From an uncultured Bifidobacterium sp. (GTDB lineage: Bacteria > Verrucomicrobiota > Verrucomicrobiia > Limisphaerales > JADLHS01), in assembly GCA_964561105.1 (NCBI GenBank), contig CAZLOH010000008.1:3093-67092 (forward strand): DNA of 64,000 nucleotides, written 5' to 3'. Under the pieces are notes generated by a model. The model saw only the letters and a program-made list of their open reading frames with translations. It ran no database searches and had not been told where the DNA came from. Positions 12,978 to 63,671 of this stretch are shown piece after piece (the stretch's first letter is position 1; each line of letters starts with the position of its first letter). The translations under genes and the position numbers were made by a program.

Positions 12978-14201
12978 ATGAAGATCTTGATTAAGATTGG
13001 CTTGTTGTTCACATTCGCCTTTGTTCAATCCGCGTACTCAATGCAGGGGAGCTATCCCAGGTGGGATGGCTTCTTTGGCAGCCAGAATTTCTACGGCTAC
13101 TCTGTTTCTACGCCTGCGGTTGGGGGCACTTATGGTTCGGTGTTGTATTACACGTCTCACGATCCAGGTGGAGATTTAGTTTTTGTTCGGGACAGCTACT
13201 ACCAGACAGAAAATTTGGTCGCAGGAGTGAATGCTGGAGGCGTGATATATGCGATCTGCAAAGGAAATGACGGACTATACATTGCTGGCTATTTCAGTAG
13301 TGTGAATGGTGTCCCCGCAACGAATGTGGCAAAATTAACCGGATCGGGTTGGGTTGGGCTCAACACGACGTTAGTGCCAGTCGCAGTCGCTGCTGGTAAC
13401 AACGGGACTGTGTACATCGGCACTCAAAATACTACGAGCACTTGCGATCATGACGACGTTCAAGTATTTCTGAAATGGAACCCCAATGCGTTACAGTGGC
13501 AAACTGTAGGAGGGGGAATGGAAATACTTGGTACAAGCCAGGCTGGAGTTCATTGTTTAGCCATCGACCAGACGGACGGCGTTAGCGTGTTTGTAGGTGG
13601 TAACTTCTTGGGAGGATCAGGCGTTTACTCCCCAAACCTCATAAAGTGGAATGGACAGACACACGCTTGGGTGGCCATGGGGAGTGGGCTGGTCGCCGAT
13701 CCCGGAACTATTCTGGATTGCAACCACAACGAATTTTTAAGTCCCATTTCGCAAAGTTGGGTAACCGAAATAGCCGTCGCAGCAAGCACCGAGGTCTATG
13801 TGGCAGGCAGGTTCTACGGGGGGATTGCTCGGTTTAGTTCAACTGGCAACCGGCTTTCCTTTGGTACACTTCTTAAGGGCGGAGGGGGGGAGGAGGGATT
13901 TGGAATAGCTTACTTAAATGGAGTGGTCTATGTGTCTGGGCTTTTCGACAGCGTAAGCGACGGCGTAAGCAACACTTCAGCCAATGGGGTAGCGCAGTGG
14001 CACGCAAACATTTGGAGCAGCTTGAGTTGCGGTCTGTGGTCACCAGACGGACTTGCCACAGGTGGAAAACTAGCAGTCACGGCGAATAGCGTAATCGTGT
14101 TTCAGGCGGGTCCAAATGGTTATCAGAATGCAGGTTGCGAGTCTCTCGATCAGGTACCCGCTCGATGGCAAATCTATGCGGACAGTCTTCTTCCACATTG
14201 A
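12978..14201 (+). CDS. Low-GC secreted protein with beta-propeller-like repeats (GxF...NVAxW...W..LG)
   Basis: Signal peptide MKILIKIGLLFTFAFVQSAYS and repeats TNVAKLTGSGWVGL, NLIKWNGQTHAWVAMGSGL and NGVAQWHANIWSSL. Two sampled 60-nt lines are 45% and 53% GC. Confidence 0.7.
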   Translation: MKILIKIGLLFTFAFVQSAYSMQGSYPRWDGFFGSQNFYGYSVSTPAVGGTYGSVLYYTSHDPGGDLVFVRDSYYQTENLVAGVNAGGVIYAICKGNDGLYIAGYFSSVNGVPATNVAKLTGSGWVGLNTTLVPVAVAAGNNGTVYIGTQNTTSTCDHDDVQVFLKWNPNALQWQTVGGGMEILGTSQAGVHCLAIDQTDGVSVFVGGNFLGGSGVYSPNLIKWNGQTHAWVAMGSGLVADPGTILDCNHNEFLSPISQSWVTEIAVAASTEVYVAGRFYGGIARFSSTGNRLSFGTLLKGGGGEEGFGIAYLNGVVYVSGLFDSVSDGVSNTSANGVAQWHANIWSSLSCGLWSPDGLATGGKLAVTANSVIVFQAGPNGYQNAGCESLDQVPARWQIYADSLLPH

Positions 14202-14613: not shown

Positions 14614-15480
14614 ATGAAAAATCGAAAGACAGGTTTCACCCTGATCGAACTTCTGGTGGTCATTGCCATCATCGCCATCCTCGCGGCCATGTTGTTGCCC
14701 GCCCTGGCCAAGGCCAAGACCAAGGCCCAAGGCATCCTTTGCATGAACAACACCAAGCAACTCATGCTCGCCTGGCACATGTACGGCGTTGATAACAATG
14801 ACGCCATTGTCGGCAGTTATCACGGTGGTGATGCCCAAGGGGGCGCTGCGGGCAACGATCCAAAAAAGTCGCCGTGGGTGACTGGCTGGTTGGACTGGAG
14901 TACCAGTACCGACAACACCAACACTCTGTTTTTAACCGAGGAGAAGTACGCCAGACTCGGGAAGTATTTGGGCAAGAATAAGAATGTATTCCAATGCCCG
15001 GCGGACCACTACGTCAGCACGGTCCAGGCGAGGATGGGCTGGTCCGCACGCTGTCGGAGCTTGTCCGGCAACATTGGTGTGGGAGATGGGAATGCCGATG
15101 CATCAGGCGCTCCTTGGGACACGATCTATAAACACATCAAGAAAACGACCGATTTTCAATATCCCAGTCCTGCGGAAACATGGGTCTATCTGGACGAACA
15201 TCCCTGCAGCATCAACGACGCAGGTTTTTTTAATCCTCATGCCAACTCGTGGATTGACCAGCCGGCTTCCTACCATAATGGCGCAGCTGGATTCTCCTTC
15301 GCCGACGGCCATTCCGAAATCCACAAATGGACGGCTTCGCTCTCGACCCCACAGGCCAAGGCCATCAATACCACCTTTAACGGCGTCACCGCTACTTCCG
15401 TGGCGGCCAAAGACCGGGACATCTCCTGGATGAGCTATCACGCCGGGCGACGGACTCCCACATACTACGGTGGATATTAA
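14614..15480 (+). CDS. Prepilin-type N-terminal cleavage/methylation protein with H-X9-DG motif (DUF1559-like)
   Basis: [23 protein letters not shown] at the N-terminus; [12 protein letters not shown] is H-X9-DG. Confidence 0.92.
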
Positions 15481-26268: not shown

Positions 26269-27417
26269 ATGAACCTTAACAACGAAGAAATCCGCCGCTA
26301 TTCACGGCACCTGATCCTGCCGGAAGTCGGTCTGGCCGGACAAAAGAAAATCAAAGCCACCAGCGTCCTGTGCATCGGCGCGGGCGGCCTCGGCTCGCCC
26401 ATCGGCATGTACCTCGCCGCCGCCGGCATCGGCAAGATCGGCATCGTGGATTTCGACCAGGTGGACGTGTCCAACTTGCAACGGCAGATTCTCCACACCG
26501 ACGCCGACGTGGGCCGGTCCAAGGCGGAATCCGCCAAGGAAACCATCGTGGGCATCAATCCCCACTGCGAAGTGGTGCTGCACCAGACCGCCATCAATTC
26601 CGGCAACGCCCTCGACCTCATCCGCCCCTACGACATCGTGGTGGACGGCACGGACAATTTCCCGACCCGCTACCTCACCAACGACGCCTGCGTGCTGCTC
26701 AAGAAGCCGAATGTCTATGGCTCCATCTTCCGCTTCGAAGGCCAGGCCAGCGTGTTCGCGCCGCATCTCGGCGGACCCTGCTATCGCTGTCTCTATCCCG
26801 AACCGCCGCCACCCGGCATGGTGCCGAGTTGCGCGGAAGGCGGCGTGCTCGGCGTGTTGCCCGGCATCATCGGCTGCATTCAGACCACGGAAATCCTGAA
26901 ACTCGCGCTCGGCAAAGGCACCTCGCTCGTCGGGCGCCTGCTCCTGTTCAACGCGCTCGACATGAAGTTCCGCGAACTCAAGCTGCGTCGCGACCCGGCA
27001 TGTCCGATCTGCGGTGACCATCCGACGATCAAGGAATTGATTGATTACGAACAATTCTGCGGCATCCAACCCGCACCCGCCGAACCGGAGAGCAATCCCG
27101 ACGAAGTCACCGTGCAGGACATGAAGCAGGCGTTAGACGATCCGAAGTTAGGCATCAAGGTCATTGACGTGCGCGAGCCGGACGAATACGAGATTGCGAA
27201 AGTGGACGGCGTGCCGTTGCTGCCCTTGAGCCAGATCGAATCACGCTTCACCGAACTCGATCCGAACCAGACCTATTACCTCCACTGCAAAGGCGGCGTG
27301 CGTTCGTTGAAGGCGCTGAACTTCCTGCGGCAACAGGGATTCAAATACCTCAAAAGCGTCAAAGGCGGCATCGCGGCGTGGTCGGATGAAATTGACCGAA
27401 ACGTGCCGAAGTATTGA
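26269..27417 (+). CDS. moeB: Molybdopterin-synthase adenylyltransferase/sulfurtransferase (ThiF/MoeB plus rhodanese, MoeZ-type)
   Basis: RYSRHLIL, GAGGLGSP, SNLQRQ, DGTDNFPTRYL, CYRCLYP and CPICG; rhodanese domain IDVREPDEY...HCKGGVRS...GGIAAW. Confidence 0.93.
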   Translation: MNLNNEEIRRYSRHLILPEVGLAGQKKIKATSVLCIGAGGLGSPIGMYLAAAGIGKIGIVDFDQVDVSNLQRQILHTDADVGRSKAESAKETIVGINPHCEVVLHQTAINSGNALDLIRPYDIVVDGTDNFPTRYLTNDACVLLKKPNVYGSIFRFEGQASVFAPHLGGPCYRCLYPEPPPPGMVPSCAEGGVLGVLPGIIGCIQTTEILKLALGKGTSLVGRLLLFNALDMKFRELKLRRDPACPICGDHPTIKELIDYEQFCGIQPAPAEPESNPDEVTVQDMKQALDDPKLGIKVIDVREPDEYEIAKVDGVPLLPLSQIESRFTELDPNQTYYLHCKGGVRSLKALNFLRQQGFKYLKSVKGGIAAWSDEIDRNVPKY

Positions 27418-27444
27418 AGCGAGGCAATTCACCGCAAAGGCGCA
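27364..27444 (+). repeat. Invariant 81-bp core of the array unit, copy 1 (last 54 nt of moeB plus 27 nt downstream)
   Basis: GGCGGCATCGCGGCG...GTATTGAAGCGAGGCAATTCACCGCAAAGGCGCA, identical at 28787-28867 and 30015-30095. Confidence 0.95.
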
Positions 27445-27866
27445 GCGCGACCGAGTCACAAGCCAAGGGGCGCGGCTGTGCTGAAAGCCAGCCGCAGCAG
27501 CTACACCTTCATAGATCGGTTGGGGAGGGGTAACACGACCCGGCGTTCGAATGTGCTGCGGCTGGTGCTGCGCACACAGCCGCGCTCCGGAAAAATCTTT
27601 GCAGCACGAAACGAAGTTGGGAGATAGCACTGCAAAGAAGTGCAGTCGCAAAGAAAACCCGTCAGGGCTGGCATATCTGTAGTCTGACCATCGGTTGACG
27701 AACCAAGCCCCGCTCAGGGGCGACATCATTCGCGGGTCGGAATATGCCGCTCCGCTGGAGCTTGTGATTTGTTGGGTTGGCAATCTACAATGATGTCGCA
27801 CCGATGGTGCTGGATGCTTGGATGAGCTTTGCGCCTTTGCCCCTTGGCGGCTTTGCGTTGCTTCGG
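27418..27866. repeat. Composite nested palindromic (REP-like) element R1
   Basis: Outer inverted repeat CGCAAAGGCGCA...TGCGCCTTTGC. It encloses a GGGGCGCGGCTGTG...CACAGCCGCGCTCC module and a CCCGTCAGGGCTGGCATAT...GCTCCGCTGGAGCTT module. Confidence 0.85.
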
Positions 27867-27917
27867 GGTATCACCGCTTGGAGCGAGGAGATTGATTCCA
27901 CAATGCCGAGGTATTGA
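27867..27917 (+). pseudogene. Diverged copy of the last 17 codons of moeB (GITAWSEEIDSTMPRY*)
   Basis: In-frame alignment to the moeB C-terminus GIAAWSDEIDRNVPKY*. Confidence 0.85.
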
Positions 27918-27943
27918 GCAGTCCCTGCCGACGGGAGAATCAC

Positions 27944-27973
27944 ATTGCCAATCAATGGCAATAGATATATGCT
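27944..27973 (+). promoter_or_regulatory. Promoter of TA cassette 1 with an operator palindrome over the -35 box
   Basis: TTGCCA-17 nt-TATGCT, 7 nt before the ATG at 27981; perfect inverted repeat ATTGCCA-atcaa-TGGCAAT at 27944-27962. Confidence 0.7.
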
Positions 27974-27980
27974 TCCAGGC

Positions 27981-28244
27981 ATGAAGATGAACACCGTCAA
28001 CATCTCGCTGCCGACGGCAATGAGCGAGTTTGTGCGCAAAAGCGTGGAGCGCGATTACGGCAACGTCAGCGAGTTCTTTCGGGACCTTCTGCGCGAGCGG
28101 ATGCGACGCGAGATCGAAGCCGACGTTACGTTTTTGAACGACGCGACCGAAGGCGCACCGCCTGGCCCGACGGAAGCCGAGATTCAGGAGATCCTCACGA
28201 TTCAAAAGCGGGTACGGAAGAAACTCCATGCGCGTGGTCTTTGA
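27981..28244 (+). CDS. Ribbon-helix-helix (ParD/CopG-like) antitoxin
   Basis: TVNISLPTAMSEFVRKSVERDYGNVSEFFRDLLR RHH pattern; overlaps the downstream PIN gene. Start set after the promoter. Confidence 0.82.
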   Translation: MKMNTVNISLPTAMSEFVRKSVERDYGNVSEFFRDLLRERMRREIEADVTFLNDATEGAPPGPTEAEIQEILTIQKRVRKKLHARGL

Positions 28245-28635
28245 CGCGAATGTCGCCGCTTCGGCAGTCGTATTCCGGGGAGAGGCTTGGGCCTGTCTCG
28301 TGAAGCTGGCGCGCAGACAAGTGTTTGCGTTTGGCACAGCGTTCACAATGGAGGAGACACGAGAGACTGCCACTGAGTTGATCCTTCATCGCAAGGCGAG
28401 ACACAACGCGGCGGGCGCGCTCCTCTGGTATCTGGAAAATGTGCGGCAAGTTCAGCCCGCCCCGCTGGGCAAGCAACGCAGCCGTGACGCGAAGGATGAT
28501 CCATACCTCGCCGCTGCGTTGGCTGGGCGAGCGAAAATCATCGTGAGCTACGACAAGGATTTGCTGGATTTGCAAAAGCCGTTTGGAATCGCCATCGTGC
28601 GGCCAGGCGAATTTCTGAAGCAATTGAAGGGCTGA
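28228..28635 (+). CDS. PIN-domain toxin (TIGR00305/PIN_3-like)
   Basis: MRVVFDANV and RDAKDDPYLAAA...IVSYDKDLL acidic PIN residues. Confidence 0.88.
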   Translation: MRVVFDANVAASAVVFRGEAWACLVKLARRQVFAFGTAFTMEETRETATELILHRKARHNAAGALLWYLENVRQVQPAPLGKQRSRDAKDDPYLAAALAGRAKIIVSYDKDLLDLQKPFGIAIVRPGEFLKQLKG

Positions 28636-28660
28636 ACAAATCTTGCTTTGGACTCCCGAC

Positions 28661-28840
28661 GAATCGCGCCTCACTGAACTCGACCCGAGCACGCCCTACT
28701 GCCTGCACTACAAAGCCGGCGTGCGATCGCTGAAGGCGCTGAACTTCCTGCGGCAACAGGGATTCACATTTCTCAAGAGCGTCCAAGGCGGCATCGCGGC
28801 GTGGTCGGATGAAATTGACCGAAACGTGCCGAAGTATTGA
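28661..28840 (+). pseudogene. 180-bp duplicate of the moeB 3' end (rhodanese fragment)
   Basis: Aligns without gaps to 27238-27417. It has 20 substitutions in the first 126 nt and none in the last 54 nt; the catalytic HCKGG has become HYKAG. Confidence 0.92.
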
Positions 28841-29109
28841 AGCGAGGCAATTCACCGCAAAGGCGCAAAGAAGCGGAGTCGCAAGGGAAGCCCGTCAGGG
28901 CTGGCATAATTATAGTTTGGAATCTCCGAATCAAATCAAGCTTCGTCCAGCGGCGACACCTTGTTGTAAAACAGAATACGTCGCTCCGCTGGAGCTTGTA
29001 GTTTTGCGTGGTTGGTTTTCTACAAAGATGCTGCACCTACGGTGCCGGTGTCGTGGACGATCCACACTCCCTTGCGCCTTTGCCCCTTGGCGACTTTGCG
29101 TTGCTTCGG
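28841..29109. repeat. Composite palindromic element R2 (short version)
   Basis: Same outer inverted repeat as R1 and the CCCGTCAGGGCTGGCAT module, but without the GGGGCGCGGCTGTG module. Confidence 0.85.
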
Positions 29110-29160
29110 GGCATCACCGCCTGGAGCGAGGAGGTTGATCCCAGAGTGCCGAGGTAATGA
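29110..29160 (+). pseudogene. Diverged copy of the moeB C-terminal codons (GITAWSEEVDPRVPR**)
   Basis: GGCATCACCGCCTGGAGCGAGGAGGTTGATCCCAGAGTGCCGAGGTAATGA. Confidence 0.85.
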
Positions 29161-29180
29161 GGCGGCGGCAGGAATTCGGT

Positions 29181-29678
29181 TCAACTCTCGCCAGCCCGCT
29201 TCAATGCAGCAGCCTCGACTGCTGGACTCAGCCAGAATGTCGTTCGGGTGGCCAGCAGTCCGAGCACTGGTTTCAAAGCAGGGATTTTTCCTACCGCTTT
29301 TGCGCGCAATAGAACACCCAAAGTTCCCGTGTAAGCGATGCCCAAAGCCGCCGCCGCCTTTCGTCCTCGAGCATCGTCCACCAAAAGCAACGAGCCAGGC
29401 AACTCCAAAGCCAGCGCCAAAGCCTCGGTCTCGCCGGGTTGCAGGTTGAACGGCAGCGATGAGACTCTCGCCAAGTTGTGCGGCGACTGTACCACCAGCC
29501 AGCCTTCCGCGTTAGCGCGTTGAACTTCTTGAACGCCGTAAGTTTTGGGTGATGCCGCGGTTTCGTTCCAGACCTCCGGCGGAATGTGGATGGTGGAATA
29601 AAACTCCTGGAGCAGATGGAATTGCTCGCCTGCCGCGAGCGTGATCAATACCGACAAATCAACGACGACCGCCGGCAT
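29181..29678 (-). CDS. DUF3368-type PIN-domain toxin
   Basis: VVVDLSVLI, IPPEVWNE, LQPGETEALALA and LLVDDARGRKAA...GTLGVLLRAK. Confidence 0.88.
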   Translation of the reverse strand: MPAVVVDLSVLITLAAGEQFHLLQEFYSTIHIPPEVWNETAASPKTYGVQEVQRANAEGWLVVQSPHNLARVSSLPFNLQPGETEALALALELPGSLLLVDDARGRKAAAALGIAYTGTLGVLLRAKAVGKIPALKPVLGLLATRTTFWLSPAVEAAALKRAGES

Positions 29679-29916
29679 AAGCGATGTCGTGTTCGAGATC
29701 GGTCATCGAGTAAGGCATTGGCACACGCCGTTCTCGCAAGATTTCCGTGAAACGCGCCTCCGTCATGCTGGCCACCCGCGCCGCTTTGCCAACGGGTAAA
29801 CTGCCGGAACGGTAGAGTGCGACGGCCAGTTCCAGATGCAACTCGGCTTCCGCCGCTTCCGGCTGGCTTTCCAACCGTTGGGCGAAGTCGTCTGAAACAT
29901 TTAGGGTCACACTCAT
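29659..29916 (-). CDS. UPF0175-family antitoxin
   Basis: ELAVALYRSGSLPVGKAARVASM...EILRERRVP; overlaps the DUF3368 gene. Confidence 0.88.
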   Translation of the reverse strand: MSVTLNVSDDFAQRLESQPEAAEAELHLELAVALYRSGSLPVGKAARVASMTEARFTEILRERRVPMPYSMTDLEHDIAYAGGRR

Positions 29917-29922
29917 GCCTGC

Positions 29923-29951
29923 ACTTTAGTTCGCGCTTGGGAATCAAGCAA
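29923..29951 (-). promoter_or_regulatory. Promoter of TA cassette 2 (leaderless)
   Basis: Minus strand TTGCTT-17 nt-TAAAGT, 6 nt before the ATG at 29916. Confidence 0.65.
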
Positions 29952-29961
29952 GCCACGGTGG

Positions 29962-30068
29962 AAAGCGCTGAACTTTCTGCGGCAACGGGGATTCAAATAC
30001 TCAAAAGCGTCAAAGGCGGCATCGCGGCGTGGTCGGATGAAATTGACCGAAACGTGCCGAAGTATTGA
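29962..30068 (+). pseudogene. Duplicate of the moeB 3' end (about 107 bp) carrying a 1-nt deletion
   Basis: AAAGCGCTGAACTTTCTGCGGCAAC...AAATACTCAAAAGCGTC (moeB reads AAATACCTCAAAAGCGTC), then identical to moeB up to the stop. Confidence 0.92.
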
Positions 30069-30525
30069 AGCGAGGCAATTCACCGCAAAGGCGCAGCGCG
30101 ACCGAGTCACAAGCCAAGGGGCGCGGCTGTGCTGAAAGCCAGCCGCAGCAGCTACACCTTCATAGATCGGTTGGGGAGGGGTAACACGACCCGGCGTTCA
30201 AACGTGCTGCGGCTGGTGCTGCGCACACAGCCGCGCTCCGGAGAAATCTTTGCAGCACGCAACGAAGTTGGGAGATAGCACTGCAAAGAAGTGCAGTCGC
30301 AAGGAAAGCCCGTCAGGGCTGACATATTTGTAGCCTGGCCATCGCACTCAAGCCCAAGCCCTGTAGGGGCGACATCGTGTAGCGAGACAGAATACGTCGC
30401 TCCGCTGGAGCTTGTAGTTTTGCGTGGTTGGTTTTCTACAAAGCTGCTGCACCTGCGGTGCTGGTGTCGCGGACGATCCAGACTCCCTTGCGTCTTTGCC
30501 CCTTGGCGTCTTTGCGTTGCTTCGG
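30069..30525. repeat. Composite palindromic element R3
   Basis: The first ~230 bp are nearly identical to R1; the last ~150 bp are nearly identical to R2. Confidence 0.88.
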
Positions 30526-30576
30526 GGCATCACCGCCGGGAGCGATGAGATTGTTTCCAAAGTGCCGAGGTATTGA
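30526..30576 (+). pseudogene. Diverged copy of the moeB C-terminal codons (GITAGSDEIVSKVPRY*)
   Basis: GGCATCACCGCCGGGAGCGATGAGATTGTTTCCAAAGTGCCGAGGTATTGA. Confidence 0.85.
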
Positions 30577-30666
30577 GCGCGACGACCAAACTCGCGTGAA
30601 ATCTTCGATCAACTTGGGTGCGTGGATCGCACGGACTGTTTGTCGAGAGAAACGGCATCGCGCCGG

Positions 30667-31377
30667 CTAATCTCCGCCAATCAACAAGCGGTCCACTGCT
30701 TCCCCGCCATCACCGAGCGAGAACAGGCGGTCGGAGATTTCATTCAAGGCCCGGCGCGTGGTGGTGAAGCGTTCCGAGAGTGTGCCGAGGATGCTGGTCA
30801 GTTCGTAGCGTTGCGCCAACCGATGATCGCTGGCCGCGCGGTATTGGCTGCGCCCCAGCGCCTCATAGTAATGCAAATCCGGAAAGCCGCGCTGTTCCGC
30901 CCGGAAGCGGATGCGTTCATGGAAGACGCCGGAGAGGAACAGGGAGTGGTTCCCAATGTGAACTCGGATTTGGAAGCTGGTGCGGTCATCCGCCGTTTGC
31001 AACGCGGCAAGCATTTCGAAGAAATAGTCCAGGACGTTGGGCTGGCCGGGGACGACGCAGCGCAACTGTTCTGTGCGGGCGAATTCCGCCAGCACCTCGG
31101 CCACGTAATCCGCCACGGCGCGATCCTTGATGTCGGCGCGCTGGAAAACGTGACGGACCAGGATGTAGAAATAGAAGTGAGTGGAGACACGCAGGCAACC
31201 GCGCCGTTCGAGCAGCGTGTGCAACAGCGCCGGGTCGTCGAGGATCTGGTCGCGGGTTTCCACGTCGGCGAGCAGTTTGACGAGACAATCCGCATTGCCC
31301 GTTTTCGTGCCGAGTACCGACACGATGAACTCGATGTCCTCCGCGGCGAATTGCACGCGGCAGTTGGGTTGAATCAC
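30667..31377 (-). CDS. Conserved hypothetical protein (helical, PVC-type)
   Basis: Long ORF with host-like codon usage (VIQPNCRVQFAAEDIEFIV...HIGNHSLFLSGVFHERI...YYEALGRSQY). Start moved to the GTG at 31377. Confidence 0.7.
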   Translation of the reverse strand: MIQPNCRVQFAAEDIEFIVSVLGTKTGNADCLVKLLADVETRDQILDDPALLHTLLERRGCLRVSTHFYFYILVRHVFQRADIKDRAVADYVAEVLAEFARTEQLRCVVPGQPNVLDYFFEMLAALQTADDRTSFQIRVHIGNHSLFLSGVFHERIRFRAEQRGFPDLHYYEALGRSQYRAASDHRLAQRYELTSILGTLSERFTTTRRALNEISDRLFSLGDGGEAVDRLLIGGD

Positions 31378-31654
31378 TTTCACGCTTTCAACAGTGGTCT
31401 GCGCTACTATGCCCTCGAATGGCCAGGAAGCAAAACCAGTTCCAGCGGACGGACGATGCGGTGATTCTCGACGCCGCGTCCGCAAACCGCCCTGCATCCC
31501 ATTTCCGCCTGAACACCTTGGATGCACGCAGGTCTCGCCAAAATTTTGACGCTCCTTTCCCCCGCCGTTGATCAGCGCACCAGCCACGCAGCCAGGACCG
31601 CCGCGAATTGCTGGACAGTTTTGCCCATTGTGTAGAATAGACGGCGCAGTGCCG

Positions 31655-32545
31655 ATGCCCCTTGAATCTCACGAACCAGCGGAAGCGCCGACCGCCCAGA
31701 TCCCGGCCCGGTCGCGATCGCAGGCGATGGACTGGAGTCTCGTGCTCGCGAGCCAGGGCATCGAGCACGCGGTGGAACGGCCGGCTGAAGCAGGCTGGGG
31801 TTTGCGGCTGGCCGGAACGGACTACGAGCGCGCGCTCGCGGTCATCCGCCAATACCAGCGCGAGAACCGGCATTGGCCGTGGCGCAAAGCAATTCCGCAC
31901 AGCGGCGAAATCTTTGACTGGGGCGTCGTTGGTTGGGTGCTGTTGAATGTGATGTTCTACTACGTCAGCGACCGGCATCCGGACTGGCGCAACGCGGCCT
32001 TGATGGACGGCGGAGCGCTGGCGCATGGCGAATGGTGGCGGCTGTTCACCGCCACGCTGTTGCACGCGGACTTCGCGCATCTGACGGCCAATGCGCTGTT
32101 CGGGTTTGTGCTGCTGGGTCTGGCGATGGGCCGGCTGGGAACGGGCATCGGGTTGCTGGCGACGTTGCTCGCAGGCGCGGTGGGCAATCTGACTTCGTGG
32201 TGGGTGCGGGGAGACCAGTTTCACGGACTCGGCGCGTCGGGCGTGGTGATGGGCGCACTGGGGCTGGTGACCGTGCAATCCTTCGCGCTGTTGCAAAAAC
32301 ATCCGCGCGCCGGGAGAATTATTCTGGTTGGGCTGGCGGGCGGCGCCATGCTCTTCACGTTACTCGGGCTTTCACCCGAAGCGGATGTGGTGGCGCATTT
32401 CGGCGGATTTCTGGCCGGCATCGTTTTCGGTTTTCTCCTTTCACCGCCACAACTGCGCCGGCGTACCATCAATATCGCCGCCGGTATCCTGTTCGCGGCG
32501 TTAATCCTATGGACCTGGAAACTGGCGATCAGCCACGCTACATGA
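31655..32545 (+). CDS. Rhomboid-family intramembrane serine protease
   Basis: EWWRLFTATLLHADFAHL, GASG (catalytic Ser) and AHFGGF (catalytic His). Confidence 0.92.
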   Translation: MPLESHEPAEAPTAQIPARSRSQAMDWSLVLASQGIEHAVERPAEAGWGLRLAGTDYERALAVIRQYQRENRHWPWRKAIPHSGEIFDWGVVGWVLLNVMFYYVSDRHPDWRNAALMDGGALAHGEWWRLFTATLLHADFAHLTANALFGFVLLGLAMGRLGTGIGLLATLLAGAVGNLTSWWVRGDQFHGLGASGVVMGALGLVTVQSFALLQKHPRAGRIILVGLAGGAMLFTLLGLSPEADVVAHFGGFLAGIVFGFLLSPPQLRRRTINIAAGILFAALILWTWKLAISHAT

Positions 32546-32603: not shown

Positions 32604-33695
32604 ATGAAAACATTGCACCCGACCATTTTTCTTGCCCTCACCCTGCCTTTTCTTGCGCCCATGAAATCCATCAGCGCGCCGGTTGACCCGCGCGGCCTCC
32701 AGTTCATTGCCTTTCATTCCACTGCCGCATTTACGCAAAGCTGCGGAACGAACGCGGATGAAATAATTCTTACCTCACCCGAAATAAGAACCCGGATTCG
32801 TTGGGACGAACTCATTGCCTCTTGGAACGCCACCACACCAGCGGGCACCGGTTTGTCCGTCGCCGTCCGCGCCATTTATCCCGACCACGCAACGAAATGG
32901 TTCACGATGGGCATCTGGTCCTCTCATCCGGACAGGTATCCACGCACCAGCGTCCGCCGGCAGAAGGACTCCGACGGCGATGTGGACACGGACACGCTGT
33001 CGCTCAAGCAACCGGCAGAGCGCGTCCAAGTACGCGTCACGCTCACCGCCGCGGGCAGACAAAAACCGAAGCTGAAATTCCTCAGCCTCTCGCTACGGGA
33101 TCGGACAGCGACGCCCGCCCCCTTGCCTCCGGACCAAAAGGCCTGGGGCAAAACCATCGCCGTCGTGGAGCGGTCCCAGATGGCCTACGAAAACGGAAAT
33201 CAGATTTGCAGTCCCACGACCGTTTCCATGTTGCTCGCTTATTGGAGCCGGCGGCTGGATCGGCCGGGACTGGACGACGGCGTGCCGGCGGTGGTGCGCG
33301 GGGTTTACGACCCGGAATGGGGCGGCACGGGCAATTGGGTGTTCAACACCGCCTACGCCGGGTCGTTCCGCTGGATGCGCGCCTACACCACCCGATTGAG
33401 CGATGTGGCCGAGCTGGAAGCGTTCATCGCCCAGGGCATTCCCGTCGGCCTTTCGCTCTGTTACAACCGGCTGCGTGGAAAGAGTCGCGTTCCGAGCGGC
33501 CACCTGGTCGTCTGCGTTGGGTTCACCCAGAATGGCGACGTCATCCTCAACGACCCGGGCACGAGCCGTCAGGTGCGAAAAACTTTTCCACGGGCAAACT
33601 TGATTGATGCCTGGGCCTACTCCAAGAACACGGTCTATCTGATTTACCCTGTGAATACGCGGCTGCCGCACGATCGCTTTGGACATTGGGAGTAG
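32604..33695 (+). CDS. Secreted peptidase C39-like protein
   Basis: Signal peptide, SQM...ICSPTTVSM (Cys), GNWVFNTAYA and GHLVVCVGF...VILNDP. Confidence 0.82.
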   Translation: MKTLHPTIFLALTLPFLAPMKSISAPVDPRGLQFIAFHSTAAFTQSCGTNADEIILTSPEIRTRIRWDELIASWNATTPAGTGLSVAVRAIYPDHATKWFTMGIWSSHPDRYPRTSVRRQKDSDGDVDTDTLSLKQPAERVQVRVTLTAAGRQKPKLKFLSLSLRDRTATPAPLPPDQKAWGKTIAVVERSQMAYENGNQICSPTTVSMLLAYWSRRLDRPGLDDGVPAVVRGVYDPEWGGTGNWVFNTAYAGSFRWMRAYTTRLSDVAELEAFIAQGIPVGLSLCYNRLRGKSRVPSGHLVVCVGFTQNGDVILNDPGTSRQVRKTFPRANLIDAWAYSKNTVYLIYPVNTRLPHDRFGHWE

Positions 33696-36545: not shown

Positions 36546-36664
36546 GGAGGGCGGCTGGGTTGAAAACCAGCCGCAGCAGCGTGAATAAATGGCGGCAGTG
36601 ATTCACCAAGCAGGCTGAGTTTAACATCCGCTGCGGCTGGTCGAGGACGACACAGCCGCGCTCC
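36546..36664. repeat. REP-like palindrome of the GCGGCTG...CAGCCGCAGCA family
   Basis: GCGGCTGGGTTGAAAACCAGCCGCAGCA...CTGCGGCTGGTCGAGGACGACACAGCCGCGCTCC; related to the modules in R1/R3 and to 49295-49543. Confidence 0.8.
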
Positions 36665-36714
36665 GCGCCCATTCCGGTTCGGGGGAAGTGCCAAACTCCG
36701 CCCGGCGACGATGG

Positions 36715-49294: not shown

Positions 49295-49543
49295 GGGGCG
49301 CGGCTGTGTCGTCCTCGACCAGCCGCAGCAGTTGCCACCCAACCTGGAAATTTCACACTCGTAACACCGGGTCGGGAACCCGGCCTTCAGGACTGGGCGA
49401 ACAAAGCTTGTAGGCCGCGTGCCCACGCGGCGGGTGTCAACATTCCAAGCTGCATGTGAAACATGCGGGGTAAATCCGCCTGCCGAATCGCTGCGGCCCA
49501 TTTTTCGCGCTGGTGCGGCTGGTTTTCAACCCGGCCGCGCTCC
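49295..49543. repeat. Nested REP-like element (GGGGCGCGGCTGTGTCGTCCTCGACCAGCCGCAGCA...GCGGCTGGTTTTCAACCCGGCCGCGCTCC)
   Basis: The two arms are reverse complements of the arms at 36546-36664, with additional palindromes nested inside. Confidence 0.78.
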
Positions 49544-49651
49544 TGGACAGTGTCAGGCTGCGCGCCCCCGCCCGCGCTTCCGTCGTTTTTCCTTGGGTAG
49601 TTTCCGTGGCTTCGCCTATGCTCCCTGCCGCTGAATTTTTGATTTGTCGCA

Positions 49652-59949: not shown

Positions 59950-62490
59950 TCAATGACGCATCCGATAGAACGCGCTGGAACCACTCGGTGGTTGGTCGGC
60001 AATGAAGAATTGCCCGGAAGCCGGAGCATTGGTGGATTGCACAGCTTCCCATATCGCCGACGACCCCAGGGTCGTGGTGCGCTCAATCAGATAGTTCGTG
60101 CCGGGAGCGCCCACGCAGGCGAGCTGAATCTGGCCGCTGGCAAGCGTGACCTGGGCAATGTATTCCAGGGGATCACCGAATCTAAAAATCGTGCCGGCGT
60201 CACTTGGGCCGCCTTGGTCCGTCGTCCCGTAGAGCGCGCCCTTCGGCCCCGAGGTTAGCCCTCCACGCGGATACGCGCCGGTGCTTGCGTCAAAGCTCGC
60301 CAGCACCGCGTAGCCGCTTCCGTCCTTGTTCAGTTGGAACAGCGTCCCCTGGCCGGAGGCCCCGCCGCGTTCGGTGGTCCCGTAAAGCGTGCCGTCGGCC
60401 GCTTCCACCAAACTCCCGCACGGATGTCGGCCATCCCCGGCCACGCCCAGAAAGGCATGGAGCAGTTGAAATCCTGAGCCGTCCTTGTTGACGCGGTACA
60501 CCACACCCGCGTCGTTGGTGGTGCCGCCGGAATACGTGGTACCGTAGAGCATCCCGTCATTCCCTTCGAGGAGTGGCGACATGGGGTTCGCGCCGGTCGT
60601 CAAACGATTGTCGAAAGTTTTCACCAAAGTGTAGTTCGTGCCGTCCAAGTCTATCCGGAAGATGCAGCCGTTCGCTGCGTTGCTGTAGGTAGTGTTCAGG
60701 TAGCTGACATAGGTGGTGCCATACAGCCGGCCGTCACTGGCTTGCAGCAGTGGTTGCATGGGGTTGAGACCGCCGGGATCAAACTGGTGGAGGACGGTAT
60801 AGTTCGATCCATCGGGTGTGAGTCGGAACAAAATGCCACGAAAGCCGGTACCACCTTGGGCGGTGATGCCGTACAGGTATCCATTCGTGGCACGCGTAAG
60901 TGCGGCGGAAGCATAATAGCCGTCAACCCCGGGAGCAAAATCGTGCAAAGTAGTCAGGTCCGGCCCGGTGGGATTCAGCGAGAAAATCGCTCCGTGACCT
61001 CCCGTGCCGTCGTTGATACCGGCGCCGACAAATACGCCGTTGGCGCTTTCAATCACGGAGGCTGTGGGGTTTGCCCCCACTGGTAACGCCGCAGTGATCT
61101 GGTACGCGCGACCCAGTGCATCAATCTGGAATACGCACCCCGCGCCCTGTTCTGAGCCGAGTCTCGTGGTCCCGTAATACAGTCCGTCGCTGGCGTGCAG
61201 CAAACCGGCATAAGGGGATTCTCCGTCACCGCCCGCGGCGGAAAACTGTCGCAGCACCGTGAATCCGGCTCCGTTCTTTTGAATTCGGAAAATGGTGCCT
61301 TCGCCGGCAACGCCTCCGAGCTTGGTGGTGCCGATCAAGTCCCCGTCTGTGGACTCCACCAACCCCGCCGCCGCCCCCTGTCCCAAGACAATGTTCGTTA
61401 GCGTCAGGTAGTTGCTGCCGTCCTGATCAATCCGAAAAACCACCCCGCCACCGTTCGTGCCGCCGTCGAACGTCGTACCGTAGAGTCGCCCGTCGGTAGC
61501 CAGAGCCAGCCCGCTCAACGATATGGCTCCGGTCGAGTTGGTTAGCTCGCGCAATACGGCAAAGTCCGCGCCATTGGTGTTGATCCGATAAACCGTTCCG
61601 GAATTCTGGCGACCGCCAGCGGAAGTTGTGCCGTAAAGAAATCCATTCGTGCCTTGAACCACTTCTCCATACGGAAAATAGCCGTTGGTCTGCACCAACA
61701 CGGGGACGGAACCGCTTGGGTATCGGTAAAAATGATGCAAAACACTGAAACCGGAACCGTCCTTTTCGAGTCGGAATAGTGTTCCCACATTCGAGCTGAT
61801 CGTCGAAGTCCAGCCCGGGATGTTGGTTCCGCCGCCAAAAAGCGTCGTGCCGTAAAGTCCGCCGTCCGTGGCCTCCAGCAGACCACCTTCGGGATTCGCG
61901 CCATCGTTACCCGCGAAAGTTTTCAACACCTCAAACCCGGTGCCGTCCTTGTGCAATCGAAATACCACGCCGTAATCGTTCGTGCCCGGGCCACCGCCCG
62001 AAGTCGTTCCATAGAGCAAGCCGTCGCTGGCTTCCAGCAATCGGGCTTCGGGATACGCGCCATTGGTGCCATCGAAACTCGCGAGCACGCTGAAATTGCT
62101 CCCGGCCATGTCGCTGCGAAACACCGTCCCAAGCCCGAAGTTGCCGCCTTCGCCGGTAGTCCCGTAAAGGAAACCGTCCGTGGCCTCGATCACCGCCGCA
62201 GACGGTCGTTGCCCGTCATTGGTCACTGACCCGAACGATTTGATGACCACGAAGCCGGTGCCGTCCTGGTTCACCCGATACAACGTCCCTTGGCGCACAC
62301 TGCCACCTGCGACCGTGGTGCCATAGAGCTTCCCGTCGCTACCCTTGATCAACTCCGCCTGCGGCATGGCCGCGCTCTGTTCCGAAAAACCGAACGCGCG
62401 CAATGCCGACAGCGATGCCGCATCAATGGAAACAGGGATCAAGCAAGCGAGGGAAAGGAGGCAAAGTGACTTGAAAGTCGGCGCGCCCAT
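59950..62490 (-). CDS. Secreted GloVer (choice-of-anchor tandem) repeat protein with a Verrucomicrobia-type C-terminal domain
   Basis: More than 12 repeats of SDGxLYGTTxxGG...GTxFRxxxDGxGFxVL; signal peptide; C-terminal domain ending SSAFYRMRH. Start set at MGAPT, downstream of the promoter. Confidence 0.88.
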   Translation of the reverse strand: MGAPTFKSLCLLSLACLIPVSIDAASLSALRAFGFSEQSAAMPQAELIKGSDGKLYGTTVAGGSVRQGTLYRVNQDGTGFVVIKSFGSVTNDGQRPSAAVIEATDGFLYGTTGEGGNFGLGTVFRSDMAGSNFSVLASFDGTNGAYPEARLLEASDGLLYGTTSGGGPGTNDYGVVFRLHKDGTGFEVLKTFAGNDGANPEGGLLEATDGGLYGTTLFGGGTNIPGWTSTISSNVGTLFRLEKDGSGFSVLHHFYRYPSGSVPVLVQTNGYFPYGEVVQGTNGFLYGTTSAGGRQNSGTVYRINTNGADFAVLRELTNSTGAISLSGLALATDGRLYGTTFDGGTNGGGVVFRIDQDGSNYLTLTNIVLGQGAAAGLVESTDGDLIGTTKLGGVAGEGTIFRIQKNGAGFTVLRQFSAAGGDGESPYAGLLHASDGLYYGTTRLGSEQGAGCVFQIDALGRAYQITAALPVGANPTASVIESANGVFVGAGINDGTGGHGAIFSLNPTGPDLTTLHDFAPGVDGYYASAALTRATNGYLYGITAQGGTGFRGILFRLTPDGSNYTVLHQFDPGGLNPMQPLLQASDGRLYGTTYVSYLNTTYSNAANGCIFRIDLDGTNYTLVKTFDNRLTTGANPMSPLLEGNDGMLYGTTYSGGTTNDAGVVYRVNKDGSGFQLLHAFLGVAGDGRHPCGSLVEAADGTLYGTTERGGASGQGTLFQLNKDGSGYAVLASFDASTGAYPRGGLTSGPKGALYGTTDQGGPSDAGTIFRFGDPLEYIAQVTLASGQIQLACVGAPGTNYLIERTTTLGSSAIWEAVQSTNAPASGQFFIADQPPSGSSAFYRMRH

Positions 62491-62503
62491 AGATTTCGCT
62501 TGC

Positions 62504-62532
62504 ATGTTATCGCAGCGGAGATTTAGAGTCAA
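62504..62532 (-). promoter_or_regulatory. Sigma70-like promoter of the GloVer gene
   Basis: Minus strand TTGACT-17 nt-TAACAT. Confidence 0.65.
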
Positions 62533-62574
62533 TCCACTTGCACTGAAAAAAAGCCGGCGCCGGCAAAACTCACG

Positions 62575-63492
62575 ATGCAACCGCTACGAAGCCATCACTC
62601 GAACCGCCGGGGTTCTTCCTCCCAGCGCGCCTTTACCTTTACCGAATTGCTGGTCGTCGTCGGGGTGATGGTGTTGCTAATGCTGGTCTTGCTCCCCGCG
62701 CAAGCGGACTCCCGCGTCAAATCCCGGAGCATTCGTTGCCTGGATAACTTACGGCAGATCATGAATGCGGTGTTGCTTTATACGGGAGACAACCACGACT
62801 TTTTTCCGCCCAACCCGGATGATGGGAATACTGTGCTTGGTCATCATTGGTGCCAGGGCAATGGCGGAGTGGGTGAGTTTGGGCCGTTCAACCCGGATAT
62901 CCTGACAGACCCGACGCGCTGTTTGATTACCACCTACCTCCACACCAACGTCAGCCTTTTTCGCTGCACGGCTGATCCTCGTTTCGGCACCTACCAAGGC
63001 AGCGATCCGGCCAAGATTGGAACCACAGTGCCGGCAGCCCGAAGCATTTCCATGAATCAGGCAGTCGGTACCATTTGTCCGACATTTAACACGGGAGGCG
63101 GACATTCCGGCGTGCCGACCATGTCGGTAAATGGCCCGTGGTTGAATAACAACGACTCTCACCGCCGTAATACCCCGTGGCGAACCTACGGCCAGCTATC
63201 CGACGTAATCATTCCTGGGCCTGCCAACCTCTGGGTGATTACGGAAGAAGATCCTTTCAGCATTAACGATGCAAGCTTTGCCTTCGGTATCAACATACCG
63301 GAGTGGGTCAACTGGCCCAGTACATTGCACGACATGAGTTGCGTTGTCACTTTCGCCGATGGTCATGTGGAGCTTCACAAATGGGTGGATCCAAGCACCC
63401 GAGTTGTCAACGGCAAGCTAATGCGCCGGTCCGTTCCCGGCAGCGCCGACTGGGCATGGCTCAAAGCGCGAACCTCGGCGCGGGCGCACTAG
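62575..63492 (+). CDS. Prepilin-type N-terminal cleavage protein with H-X9-DG motif, tandem copy 1
   Basis: RAFTFTELLVVVGVMVLL; HDMSCVVTFADG is H-X9-DG. Confidence 0.88.
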   Translation: MQPLRSHHSNRRGSSSQRAFTFTELLVVVGVMVLLMLVLLPAQADSRVKSRSIRCLDNLRQIMNAVLLYTGDNHDFFPPNPDDGNTVLGHHWCQGNGGVGEFGPFNPDILTDPTRCLITTYLHTNVSLFRCTADPRFGTYQGSDPAKIGTTVPAARSISMNQAVGTICPTFNTGGGHSGVPTMSVNGPWLNNNDSHRRNTPWRTYGQLSDVIIPGPANLWVITEEDPFSINDASFAFGINIPEWVNWPSTLHDMSCVVTFADGHVELHKWVDPSTRVVNGKLMRRSVPGSADWAWLKARTSARAH

Positions 63493-63671
63493 GTGCCCAG
63501 CTGGGGATGTTTGTGAAGGTGGCAGTTCTCGCGCTGCGAGAACTCCGCCCGCGTAGAGCGGGCGACGGGAGCGGCAGACGGCGTAATTTAGCCCGCCTCC
63601 CGTGCGAAAGTTGGGTTGACGTCAATCCACTTGCACTGCATGTAACAAGACGAGTCCAGCAATAACTCACG

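Follow-up and report, generated by a model that had tools for sequence, protein, structure and literature searches.

Candidate relics of a displaced moeB 3' end in a toxin-antitoxin cassette array of Verrucomicrobiota

Islands moved by tyrosine recombinases leave attL and attR remnants and accrete in tandem at the 3' ends of genes, and accretion of ICEs and CIMEs has reportedly been described for fda of Streptococcus thermophilus. A conserved gene can also serve as an anchor for homology-based exchange, as in the minimal mobile elements of Neisseria, in the homology-facilitated illegitimate recombination of transformable bacteria and in the partial 3'-CS duplications of complex class 1 integrons. 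DNA entering at a gene 3' end classically leaves a displaced gene end behind, and the three GITAW-type segments analyzed here are therefore unsurprising in themselves. Less ordinary is that a clade of Verrucomicrobiota keeps a hypervariable array right behind one housekeeping gene, each layer of which appears to be marked by the fossil of an earlier moeB end, with no recombinase in sight. Two old allele classes of the last 16 moeB codons seem to swap back and forth here at one conserved 18-mer.

We analyzed a 64-kb stretch of DNA (hereafter the window), in which moeB is the sole gene with such an array. The working moeB/moeZ-type gene (26269-27417, forward strand) encodes a 382-residue protein with ThiF (Pfam, 1.6e-81) and rhodanese (6e-14) domains, and the top one of its 8000 homologues is 93% identical. 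Its final 16 codons and stop (27367-27417) encode GIAAWSDEIDRNVPKY, here termed the A-type end, and two further forward-strand ends at 28790-28840 and 30018-30068 have the same translation. A second, T-type end is found three times on the same strand, as T1 (27867-27917, GITAWSEEIDSTMPRY and a stop), T2 (29110-29160, GITAWSEEVDPRVPR and two stops) and T3 (30526-30576, GITAGSDEIVSKVPRY and a stop), with exactly the coordinates and translations given in a previous sequence-only reading of this locus. That reading counted six moeB C-termini of two types, and a six-frame scan of the window with a C-terminal motif returned exactly six matches, all on the forward strand within the array. Among other loci scanned, 50 had one match each and only L001 had several. 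A 24-mer of the T end, with up to three mismatches allowed, hits the three T sites only, versus none expected.

We compared the two end types with those of relatives. Among 120 MoeB homologues, 45 end in GITAWSDEIDRNVPRY and the closest (93%) in GITAWSEEIDRNVPRY; the GIAAW..VPKY end is found in none of them except the window's own protein. T-type DNA forms the working moeB end in L001, L002 and L167, and a T-type relic lies behind moeB in every close relative whose working end is of the R/A type (L161, L162, L164-166 and L169/171, counting relatives with 90-93% MoeB identity and enough downstream sequence). These comparisons show that the T type is native to this lineage, and that the A type represents a different allele class. 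The A/R type is the common allele class across the wider family. The sequence-only reading had taken the GITAW end for a displaced ancestral or foreign gene end and proposed that GITAW-type C-termini in close relatives would support this; relatives do carry them. The gene body of the window moeB matches that of L001 at 982 of 1098 positions (89.4%), with 58/60 matches at positions -52 to -111 (counted back from the stop), followed by only 34/51 (67%) in the final 51 nt (Fisher p = 2e-5). No other of the 1099 sliding 51-nt windows scores lower than this final stretch, and only an adjacent overlapping one equals it. The drop from 89% in the body to 67% in the end thus places a break at -51, between GGC and ATC, where the crossover had been proposed to lie. 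Here, the break is located within a small palindrome, AGGCGG-CATCA-CCGCCT. The A end is nearest to the working ends of L102 (46/51) and L004 (44/51) and matches that of L169 at 38/45 positions, versus 34-36/51 (67-71%) for the T ends. Conversely, the T ends match the working ends of L001 at 43/51 and of L002 at 45-46/51 positions, and relic c behind the L001 gene at 47/51 (T1, T3) or 46/51 (T2). These identities of 84-92% to moeB ends, working or relic, in the nearest relatives indicate homology rather than chance. The T segments are real moeB 3' ends, as described earlier, but to call them recoded is misleading, as they are diverged relics of the other allele class rather than a re-encoded version of the present end.

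The T copies carry marks of decay. From a putative ancestral form, GITAWSEEIDSKVPRY and a stop, T1 differs by two synonymous and two nonsynonymous codon changes, T2 by one and four, including a tyrosine-to-stop change, and T3 by one and three, including a tryptophan-to-glycine change at a residue retained in 119 of the 120 homologues. With nine nonsynonymous versus four synonymous changes in sum, among them a nonsense change and the loss of this tryptophan, the T copies are probably dead. The 20 nt after T3 resemble the native flank behind the L001 gene (30526-30596 matches L001 9099-9168). As part of our best explanation for the locus, to which we assign a probability of roughly 55% as a whole, the T segments would be non-functional, decaying relics of the lineage's own moeB 3' end. 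They have no present coding role, and their significance is that of fossils and recombination substrates.

In each of the three units, the same kind of insert separates the relic, exactly 51 nt before its stop, from the moeB sequence that formerly preceded it. An A/R-type version of the final 16 codons and stop opens the insert, and a gene-less spacer of REP-like palindromes follows; the borders of the insert share only the 6-nt repeat GGCATC, and the break is identical in all three units. Spacers X1 (27418-27866) and X3 (30069-30525) each contain a nested palindrome (27444-27631, REP-like and about 190 nt long, and 30095-30282, respectively), relatives of which are found in the window at 36550-36665 and 49296-49545. 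In Logan contigs, X1 shows depth spikes and loose ends. Spacer X2 (28841-29109), a minimal 269-nt form, has outer inverted arms at 28853-28888 and 29068-29103 (inverted repeat I1) and a terminator-like hairpin at 28983-28995, and folds into a single long hairpin (-60.9 kcal/mol, z = -5.0). The inverted repeats I1, I4 and I17 of the spacer are short, imperfect, extragenic and dispersed and thus resemble REP/BIME sequences, a match that applies to the spacer and not to the T ends. As with REPs, the arms and the nested element of about 190 nt are imperfect palindromes located just after stop codons and recur elsewhere in the window and at many further places in metagenomes; public contigs show the palindromic arm with different neighbors. 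Gene ends are not carried by REPs, whereas here one such palindrome sits exactly at the break within a relic of coding sequence. The 64-kb window showed no RAYT gene. A MITE can be discarded, because the true ends of the insert, which starts with GCGGCGTGGTCGG and finishes with GCGTTGCTTCGG, are not inverted repeats; the 36-nt arms sit 13 nt and 6 nt inside its borders.

Identities among the three units are mosaic. An 86-nt block comprising the A end and 26 nt of downstream flank (27358-27443) has an identical copy at 30009-30094 and a 98.8% copy at 28781-28866, whereas the right halves of the inserts differ by 15-27%. Units 1 and 3 are 99% identical over 300 nt (27349-27648 versus 30000-30299), units 2 and 3 90% identical over 213 nt. 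This pattern would fit recent gene-conversion tracts over older, more diverged copies. Alternatively, the 86-nt block, perfect in two non-coding copies, could be under selection as a DNA site.

Two cassettes lie between the units. TA1 (27981-28635, forward strand), preceded by its own promoter-like site at 27945-27973, consists of an antitoxin-like open reading frame of 85-99 residues (starting at 27981 or 27987 and ending at 28244), which has no Pfam match and overlaps a PIN_3 toxin gene (28228-28635, 3e-13). TA2 (29181-29916, reverse strand) combines a DUF3368/PIN toxin (29181-29678, 4e-12) with an overlapping UPF0175 antitoxin (29659-29916, 4e-18). Both thus show the type II toxin-antitoxin arrangement of a small antitoxin gene overlapping a toxin gene of known fold, and are predicted to function as such. 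Each cassette is followed by a partial moeB copy with an A-type end. The copy in unit 2 (28645-28840, forward strand) begins at about -180 to -205, ends with the stop and matches the working gene upstream of -51 at 54/60 and 55/69 positions in two segments; it is decayed, as the catalytic HCK motif reads HYK. The copy in unit 3 (29951-30068, forward strand) starts at about -117, and its junction with TA2 is the same in the window, L167 and L169. In L169 and L171, the orthologous fragment behind TA2 has the junction seen in the window but continues uninterrupted into a T end, and unit 3 was therefore already a relic, older than the insert, when it was split. The sequence-only reading had interpreted the T ends as attR-like scars. 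This holds in that the native end appears to have been displaced by an insert bearing a replacement end, but not as three rescues of a working gene, given the uninterrupted block in L169 and L171. Uninterrupted versions exist elsewhere too, and the break is sharp. Relics c, d and e of L001 are contiguous, and in Logan contigs from runs X16 and X18, whose moeB alleles are about 98% identical, position 27369 is followed directly by 27870, so that exactly 500 nt are missing.

Similar arrays punctuated by relics are located behind moeB in most close relatives examined, with cassettes shared and reshuffled among them. In L167/168, L169/171 and the P0008 contig, a TA2 homologue (toxin identity 85-88%) comes right after moeB; L170 has the same cassette, and at the position of moeB its contig ends shortly after entering a reverse-strand gene. 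A ParD/PemK cassette common to L001 and L162 has the same right junction and different left neighbors. The relics have left borders at -51, -70, -79, -103, -117, -120, -131, -164/-192, about -180, -434 and about -1013, and in L001 a DUF885 gene is truncated mid-gene where a moeB fragment joins it. The window insert, the L102 relic and a 36-nt palindrome in the relics of L001, L162 and L164-166 share a breakpoint at -51, to within 3 nt. L102 has a 1.5-kb island with an HNH gene, and the L102 junction falls in microhomology with an unrelated gene fragment. In L164-166 the order is nearly tandem, with the working end followed by a single G, a relic from -70, the 36-nt palindrome and a T end.

We propose that moeB homology anchored both the accretion of the array and gene conversion within it, and that breaks recurred at -51. 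The probability of about 55% applies to this reading. The variable relic borders, the truncated DUF885 gene, the shared cassettes, the mosaic units and the T relics behind R/A ends together argue for such homology-driven growth. No dedicated recombinase would be required, as conserved moeB sequence and its relics would serve as portable homology. Incoming DNA from a related strain would recombine within moeB on one side and join on the other either in a relic, by homologous double crossover or integration of a circle through a single crossover, or through illegitimate joining. The gene end and downstream cassette of the newcomer would then lie proximally, with the resident end displaced to the distal side as a relic whose length varies. 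The A end and spacer may have been joined to moeB once, by an illegitimate or hairpin-promoted event at -51, after which gene conversion would have copied the insert into other moeB fragments, and it may still homogenize the left 86-300 nt. Homology-anchored exchange as described elsewhere likewise uses a conserved flanking gene as anchor, places different cassettes in the same slot of related strains, combines a homologous junction with one that can be illegitimate, and yields partial anchor duplications of variable length. At moeB, by contrast, successive events build up an array in which a relic follows each cassette, and -51 recurs as a breakpoint. We know of no natural transformation or other DNA delivery route in these uncultured Verrucomicrobiota. 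To account for three inserts at a single site, one of which entered a relic that already existed, gene conversion or active insertion must be invoked, and the flanks available for conversion are short (66-130 nt and 51 nt) and 85-90% identical. General homologous recombination by itself does not explain why moeB alone in 64 kb has such an array. The T relics would mark a recombination hot spot where toxin-antitoxin cassettes accumulate, and the array may be read as a layered record of genes acquired one after another. The locus offers a natural setting in which to ask whether an integron-like cassette store can run on homologous recombination alone or whether an unknown site-specific system operates.

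The recurrence of the -51 breakpoint could equally reflect a site-specific enzyme. The A end and spacer would then be a miniature non-autonomous integrative element, akin to a cis-mobilizable element and moved by a recombinase encoded elsewhere. GGCATC would be its core site, the spare gene end would keep the target intact, the T ends would be attR scars, and cassettes with moeB fragments would be further modules bounded by GGCATC. We consider this possible but unlikely. The insertion is precise to one nucleotide in three moeB contexts, including a relic, at a GGCATC repeat within a palindrome; the insert restores the gene end, empty sites exist, the -51 position recurs in L102 and as the 36-nt palindrome site in six relatives, and the 86-nt block is nearly invariant even where it is non-coding. 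As in attL/attR systems, the gene receives a new 3' end from the incoming DNA while its native end stays at the far border; modules stand in tandem, with a 3'-end copy of the gene bordering each, and non-autonomous modules without an integrase as well as empty sites occur. However, Pfam detected no integrase or transposase in the array genes, in 24 neighboring genes (10.6 to 49.2 kb) and one gene at 59 kb, nor among the scanned cassette proteins of L001, L102 and L162, and precomputed Pfam matches around moeB in L161, L162 and the P0008 contig contain no such family. The moeB fragments on the cassette side, 51 to about 1000 nt long, have no fixed core, which a fixed crossover site does not predict; nor does this model account for the DUF885 truncation or for the L102 junction in microhomology. 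The modules are tiny toxin-antitoxin pairs (about 0.75 kb), the smallest consisting only of a gene end and REP-like palindromes, and the contrast between nearly identical left 86 nt and diverged right halves has the look of a conversion tract. Circle or excision joints were absent from public contigs of the same strain, which hide rare forms.

In a bolder version, the moeB 3' end would be the attachment site of a new integron-like cassette platform in Verrucomicrobiota of the Pedosphaerales type. A recombinase encoded elsewhere would recognize the palindromic GGCATC at -51, with the 86-nt block as its recognition arm, and move toxin-antitoxin cassettes and the gene-less miniature with its spare gene end. 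We regard this as improbable. As in chromosomal integrons and CALINs, compact cassettes, many of them toxin-antitoxin pairs, are stacked at one locus, are separated by palindromes, and are shared and reordered. Yet the locus does not look like an integron or CALIN proper, as the Pfam scans show no intI and inspection found no attC sites: the borders read CCGAGGTATTGA followed by G (TATTGA before the G), with no GTTRRRY there, rather than G followed by TTRRRY. In addition, both orientations occur among the cassettes, which come with promoter-like sites of their own, and the repeated unit is the 3' end of a housekeeping gene.

Two further readings are very unlikely. In the first, the final 51 nt were duplicated locally in tandem about a REP insertion, and T drifted while A stayed under selection. 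This would place A and T ends next to each other in the same orientation around a palindromic insert, as observed, and the near-tandem order in L164-166 resembles this. However, the T ends are 90-92% identical to relic c of L001, the same DNA type works in other genomes, and the A end is closer to the ends of L102 and L169 than to T, suggesting old allele classes rather than recent paralogues. Moreover, the synonymous differences between A and T, among them a TCG/AGC serine switch, are what a long history as coding sequence would produce. An assembly artefact, in which strain variants with different DNA behind moeB were strung across shared repeats so that the array or its order is unreal, is about as improbable. 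The units share 86-300 nt of identical sequence, exceeding short-read k-mers, and public contigs break at the repeats, leaving the moeB-X1 and unit 3-X3 links unverified. Such contigs are too short to confirm unit order across the 99% identical 300-nt repeats, and a path from moeB through X3 and T3 to the downstream region plus a 2.65-kb circle would also be allowed. Against this, single contigs from independent runs and four environments span, at even depth, X1, T1, TA1 and the following moeB fragment (27622-28814); others span the unit 2 fragment, its A end and X2 (28731-29027), X2, T2, TA2 and the next fragment (28998-30029), and T3 with the downstream region. Every relic and junction discussed thus lies on one molecule, and comparable arrays are present in the independent assemblies L001, L161, L162, L165 and L169.

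That the GITAW segment is a fixed part of a REP-like element resembling moeB by chance, part of the outcome that the sequence-only reading had named as speaking against it, is refuted: although the segment directly follows a palindromic arm with the same 6-nt linker in all three copies, further arm copies, from this and different metagenomes, run only as far as CTTTGCGTTG, 7 nt short of the T end, beyond which the sequence is unrelated (with loose ends at 27859 and 30517-30519), the window holds no further T copies, and T is 84-90% identical to the working ends of L001 and L002, besides its match to relic c. For annotation, neither the partial moeB copies nor the short open reading frames reaching into the T ends should be called as genes, both being pseudogene fragments.

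The moeB/moeZ-type gene of the window (26269-27417), which encodes ThiF and rhodanese domains (Pfam), heads an array of three repeat units that extends downstream of it. The window is part of a Verrucomicrobiota genome, and its best MoeB matches are MAGs labelled Verrucomicrobiia or Pedosphaera. Every unit consists of a 3' piece of moeB, an A-type end (GIAAWSDEIDRNVPKY, then a stop), a palindromic spacer devoid of genes, and a 51-nt T-type end. In unit 1, the moeB piece comprises the entire gene; in unit 2 it measures about 180-205 nt (start 28645/28660) and in unit 3 about 117 nt (start 29951). Its left border differs between units, and the right border of all units lies directly past the stop codon of the T end. 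Spacer X2 of unit 2 is 269 nt long, and X1 and X3 of units 1 and 3 measure about 450 nt and carry a nested palindrome of ~190 nt (27444-27631, 30095-30282). The units are separated by two toxin-antitoxin cassettes, TA1 on the + strand (a small ORF and a PIN_3 toxin) and TA2 on the - strand (UPF0175 and a DUF3368/PIN toxin). To the right of the array follow an unknown gene (30667-31587), a rhomboid gene (31568-32545) and a Peptidase_C39-like gene (32604-33695). In a synteny comparison, none of the genes from 30667 onward was found behind moeB in any related locus examined, whereas many of these loci retain synteny at the upstream PNP gene; the array is thus bordered on the right by a synteny break.

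The three T ends (T1, 27867-27917; T2, 29110-29160; T3, 30526-30576) have exactly the coordinates and translations given by the sequence-only reading. A six-frame scan of the 64 kb for the C-terminal motif returned six moeB ends and no others, and a 24-mer from the T end, with up to 3 mismatches, hit only the three T sites (0 expected). The T ends share 67-71% DNA identity with the A end but match the working ends of two related moeB loci at 43/51 (L001) and 45-46/51 positions (L002), and one of the moeB fragments in L001, relic c, at 46-47/51. The T ends are thus true moeB ends and represent a different allele class. Relative to a reconstructed T end (GITAWSEEIDSKVPRY, then a stop), T1-T3 have accumulated 4 synonymous and 9 nonsynonymous codon changes, including a tyrosine to stop and a tryptophan to glycine exchange, and they are decaying relics. 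The T ends are displaced native gene ends, a type of footprint already known; to that extent the earlier interpretation of them as attR-like scars holds, and it is supported in part.

Among the closest relatives, both allele classes are in use at the DNA level. T-type DNA (TGGAGCGAGGAGATTGATTCCAAAG) forms the working end in L001, L002 and L167, and R/A-type DNA (TGGTCGGAnGAAATTGACCGnAA) does so in the window, L161-166, L169/171 and the wider family. Among 120 MoeB homologues (87-93% identity), 45 end in GITAWSDEIDRNVPRY, the closest (93%) ends in GITAWSEEIDRNVPRY, and the C-terminus GIAAWSDEIDRNVPKY is that of the window's own protein alone. When the moeB genes of the window and L001 are aligned, 982 of 1098 positions match in the body (89.4%) and 58 of 60 between -52 and -111, counted back from the stop, versus 34 of the last 51 (Fisher p = 2e-5). 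These last 51 nt are the least conserved part, no other 51-nt stretch of the gene scoring lower. The A end finds its best matches in working ends of more distant genomes (L102, 46/51; L004, 44/51). Synonymous changes and a TCG/AGC serine switch are among the features that distinguish A from T, which indicates that both evolved as coding sequence. As the 18-mer AGCGTCAAAGGCGGCATC is the final block of identity before the classes diverge, allele switches map to -46..-63. A T-type relic is present in every close relative that has an R/A-type working end and sufficient downstream sequence; L001 represents the reverse case, with a T-type working end and an R-type relic behind it.

Homologues of the TA2 toxin (85-88% identity) are located directly behind moeB in L167/168, L169/171 and a further moeB-bearing contig, P0008. 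In L169/L171, TA2 and a moeB fragment (from about -117) form a block whose junction is that of window unit 3. Here, the fragment is uninterrupted (...GTCAAAGGCGGCATCACCGCGTGGAGCGAGGAGATTGATTCCAAAGTGCCGAGGTATTGA) and identical to the reconstructed T end. Unit 3 is thus this older, L169/L171-type relic, which was split at -51 by 508 nt comprising an A end and X3. Contigs from two public metagenome runs, X16 and X18, contain moeB alleles (about 98% identical) in which position 27369 is joined straight to 27870, omitting exactly 500 nt, the A end plus spacer X1. The insert thus truly entered as an insertion, at one exact position, and a minimum of one of the three insert copies lies in a fragment that already was a relic.

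Arrays in which moeB 3' fragments separate the cassettes are found behind moeB in several relatives. L001 contains five such fragments with cassettes including Uma2, ParD/PemK and two unknown genes, and a DUF885 gene is truncated at one junction. In L161, a 249-nt palindromic element and a relic from -120 are accompanied by a Kelch-repeat gene and one more moeB fragment; L162 combines a palindromic element with a relic from -79 that bears a 36-nt palindrome at -51, and with ParD/PemK and a second fragment. In L164-166, a single G links the working end to a relic from -70; the 36-nt palindrome lies at -51, and a T end closes the series. L165 also has a 4.3 kb gene with a moeB fragment after it. 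The P0008 contig and L102 also harbor such structures. The ParD/PemK cassettes of L001 and L162 share their right junction save for a 25-nt deletion, and their left neighbours differ. The moeB-anchored cassette array is unusual and, as a hot spot, conserved across a Verrucomicrobial clade. In the Blastocatellia loci L108 and L034, moeB 3' duplications bracket inserted genes, and outside Verrucomicrobiota, too, the 3' end of moeB may act as a hot spot for insertions. There, MoaD-MoeB fusion genes (Acidobacteriota) have a partial 3' duplicate 2.6-3.7 kb downstream (L108, 5436-5903; L034, 8363-8454), and the genes bracketed in L108 look like an ECF sigma/anti-sigma pair.

The 35-36-nt palindrome (CGCGAAAAGCGGCGnGGnCGCCTCGCGGCTTTACGC) occurs at -51 of a T-type relic in six relatives, for example at 11231-11266 in L001, 5180-5215 in L162, about 2709-2744 in L164 and about 11170-11204 in L165. 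Its right arm nearly repeats the neighbouring moeB bases GCGTCAAAGGC in inverted orientation, which suggests an origin by template switching or by REP insertion at a look-alike site. In L102 (2181-2630), the moeB relic runs, across the microhomology GGTATCACCG, into the 5' part of an ORF (...LEHIIRAAAGIT...) without a Pfam match, whose motif may resemble the N-termini of nucleotidyltransferase-type toxins. The same island encodes an HNH endonuclease (1032-1604, - strand), and a 5' fragment of the downstream neighbour gene is duplicated in it.

The loci show directly that ends were replaced at -51, that relics decay and vary in length, that cassettes are shared and reshuffled, and that identity among the units is mosaic. 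Conserved moeB and its relics would provide the homology for RecA-type exchange, which could proceed as a double crossover of moeB with one of its relics or, alternatively, by single-crossover integration of circles that had been excised between repeats; some joints would be illegitimate. In each event, the incoming end and its cassette would become proximal and the resident end would be shifted distally. The -51 joint is located inside a palindrome of the T-type gene (AGGCGG-CATCA-CCGCCT) that resembles REP arms (CGCAAAGGCGC). Hairpin-promoted breaks or REP insertion may make it a hot spot, which would account for the recurrence of -51.

No single homologous event puts the insert into units 2 and 3 alike, and thus it must have been copied, by gene conversion or by a site-specific activity. 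The 86-nt A-end blocks of units 1 and 3 are 100% identical, that of unit 2 reaches 98.8%, and over 300 nt units 1 and 3 match at 99%, whereas the right halves of the inserts differ by 15-27%, a pattern that counts for conversion. Copying by a site-specific activity appears rather unlikely: we found no integrase or transposase in the arrays examined (window, L001, L102, L161, L162, P0008 contig) or near the window array, the search of the window genome covering 64 kb. Homology-facilitated illegitimate recombination or a single Campbell integration was rejected as the sole origin of the -51 insert, since neither yields the insert in units 2 and 3 in one step and an extra copying step, conversion or site-specific insertion, would be needed. 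A MITE is dismissed because the true ends are not inverted repeats, and an integron by border sequence, cassette orientation, promoters and the lack of intI. A search of the literature for cassette arrays in Verrucomicrobia yielded integron papers only. No excision or circle joints of the same strain appeared in public contigs, which drop rare forms.

X2 folds into one long hairpin (DNA MFE -60.9 kcal/mol, z = -5.0) with 36-nt arms that are 78% complementary, and in every spacer a T-run follows a terminator-like hairpin (GCTCCGCTGGAGC). Sequences related to the nested ~190-nt palindrome lie at 36550-36665 and 49296-49545. In public contigs, the nested element and the right arm (27827-27859, 30486-30519) show depth spikes and many unrelated continuations, and arm similarity always stops at ...CTTTGCGTTG, 7 nt short of the T end. 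The spacer is thus built from dispersed REP-like repeats to which the T end does not belong. A GITAW segment that was a fixed part of a REP element would have spoken against the sequence-only reading; the result instead favours the scar. The two nested palindromes and the sequences at 36550-36665 and 49296-49545 form an intergenic family of REP-like palindromes (arms GGGGCGCGGCTGTG...CAGCCGCAGCAGC / GCTGCGGCTGG...CACAGCCGCGCTCC), with at least 4 copies in the 64 kb; in public metagenome contigs, the depth of the family is very high. The spread of the spacer as a whole beyond this locus was probed via a 109-aa ORF spanning X2, which had no matches among 5.8 billion proteins when spurious ORF calls over related elements were sought. 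The left arm of the spacer aligns locally with moeB (19/23 matches), but the right arm mirrors these bases, and the match therefore belongs to the palindrome and not to a hidden short relic comparable to the -70 relic of L164-166. Rfam scans (gathering threshold for the whole window, E-value threshold for 27300-30700) and tRNA/tmRNA scans gave nothing above threshold; a sub-threshold Acido-Lenti-1 RNA match in X3 (30357-30399, - strand; 18.4 bits versus a gathering cutoff of 37, E = 0.55) is probably due to chance.

Public contigs break at the identical repeats of the array, and the order of units, as well as a chromosomal rather than circular location of the two-cassette segment, rest on the window assembly. 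Each junction discussed lies on single contigs from several independent runs. A variant in run X16 joins 28936 to 27704, which shows that other strains carry the insert as well. Public runs X1-X15 contain 86-96% of the sampled 31-mers of window 27900-30000 (71% in run X15), and this part of the array is 100% identical in run X1; the strain is present at 100% identity in the samples of runs X1, X3, X5 and X14. At least 5 studies contributed the metagenomes with the array, which come from wastewater, wetland, soil and aquaculture; one strain with exactly this array is therefore geographically and ecologically widespread.

Elsewhere in the window, ORFs 12978-14201 (no Pfam match) and 14614-15480 (N-terminal methylation motif and DUF1559) have third-position GC contents of 0.51 and 0.67 versus about 0.75-0.8 in their neighbours, and may have been horizontally acquired. 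An 876-aa ORF (59950-62580, - strand) contains many internal 40-50-nt repeats spaced by about 160 nt, and its product looks like a beta-propeller or repeat protein. A 300-nt direct repeat of 95% identity (62567-62866 and 63664-63963, spacing 1097 nt) lies where two adjacent ORFs start (62575-63492 and from 63672 to the window end); these look like tandem paralogues.
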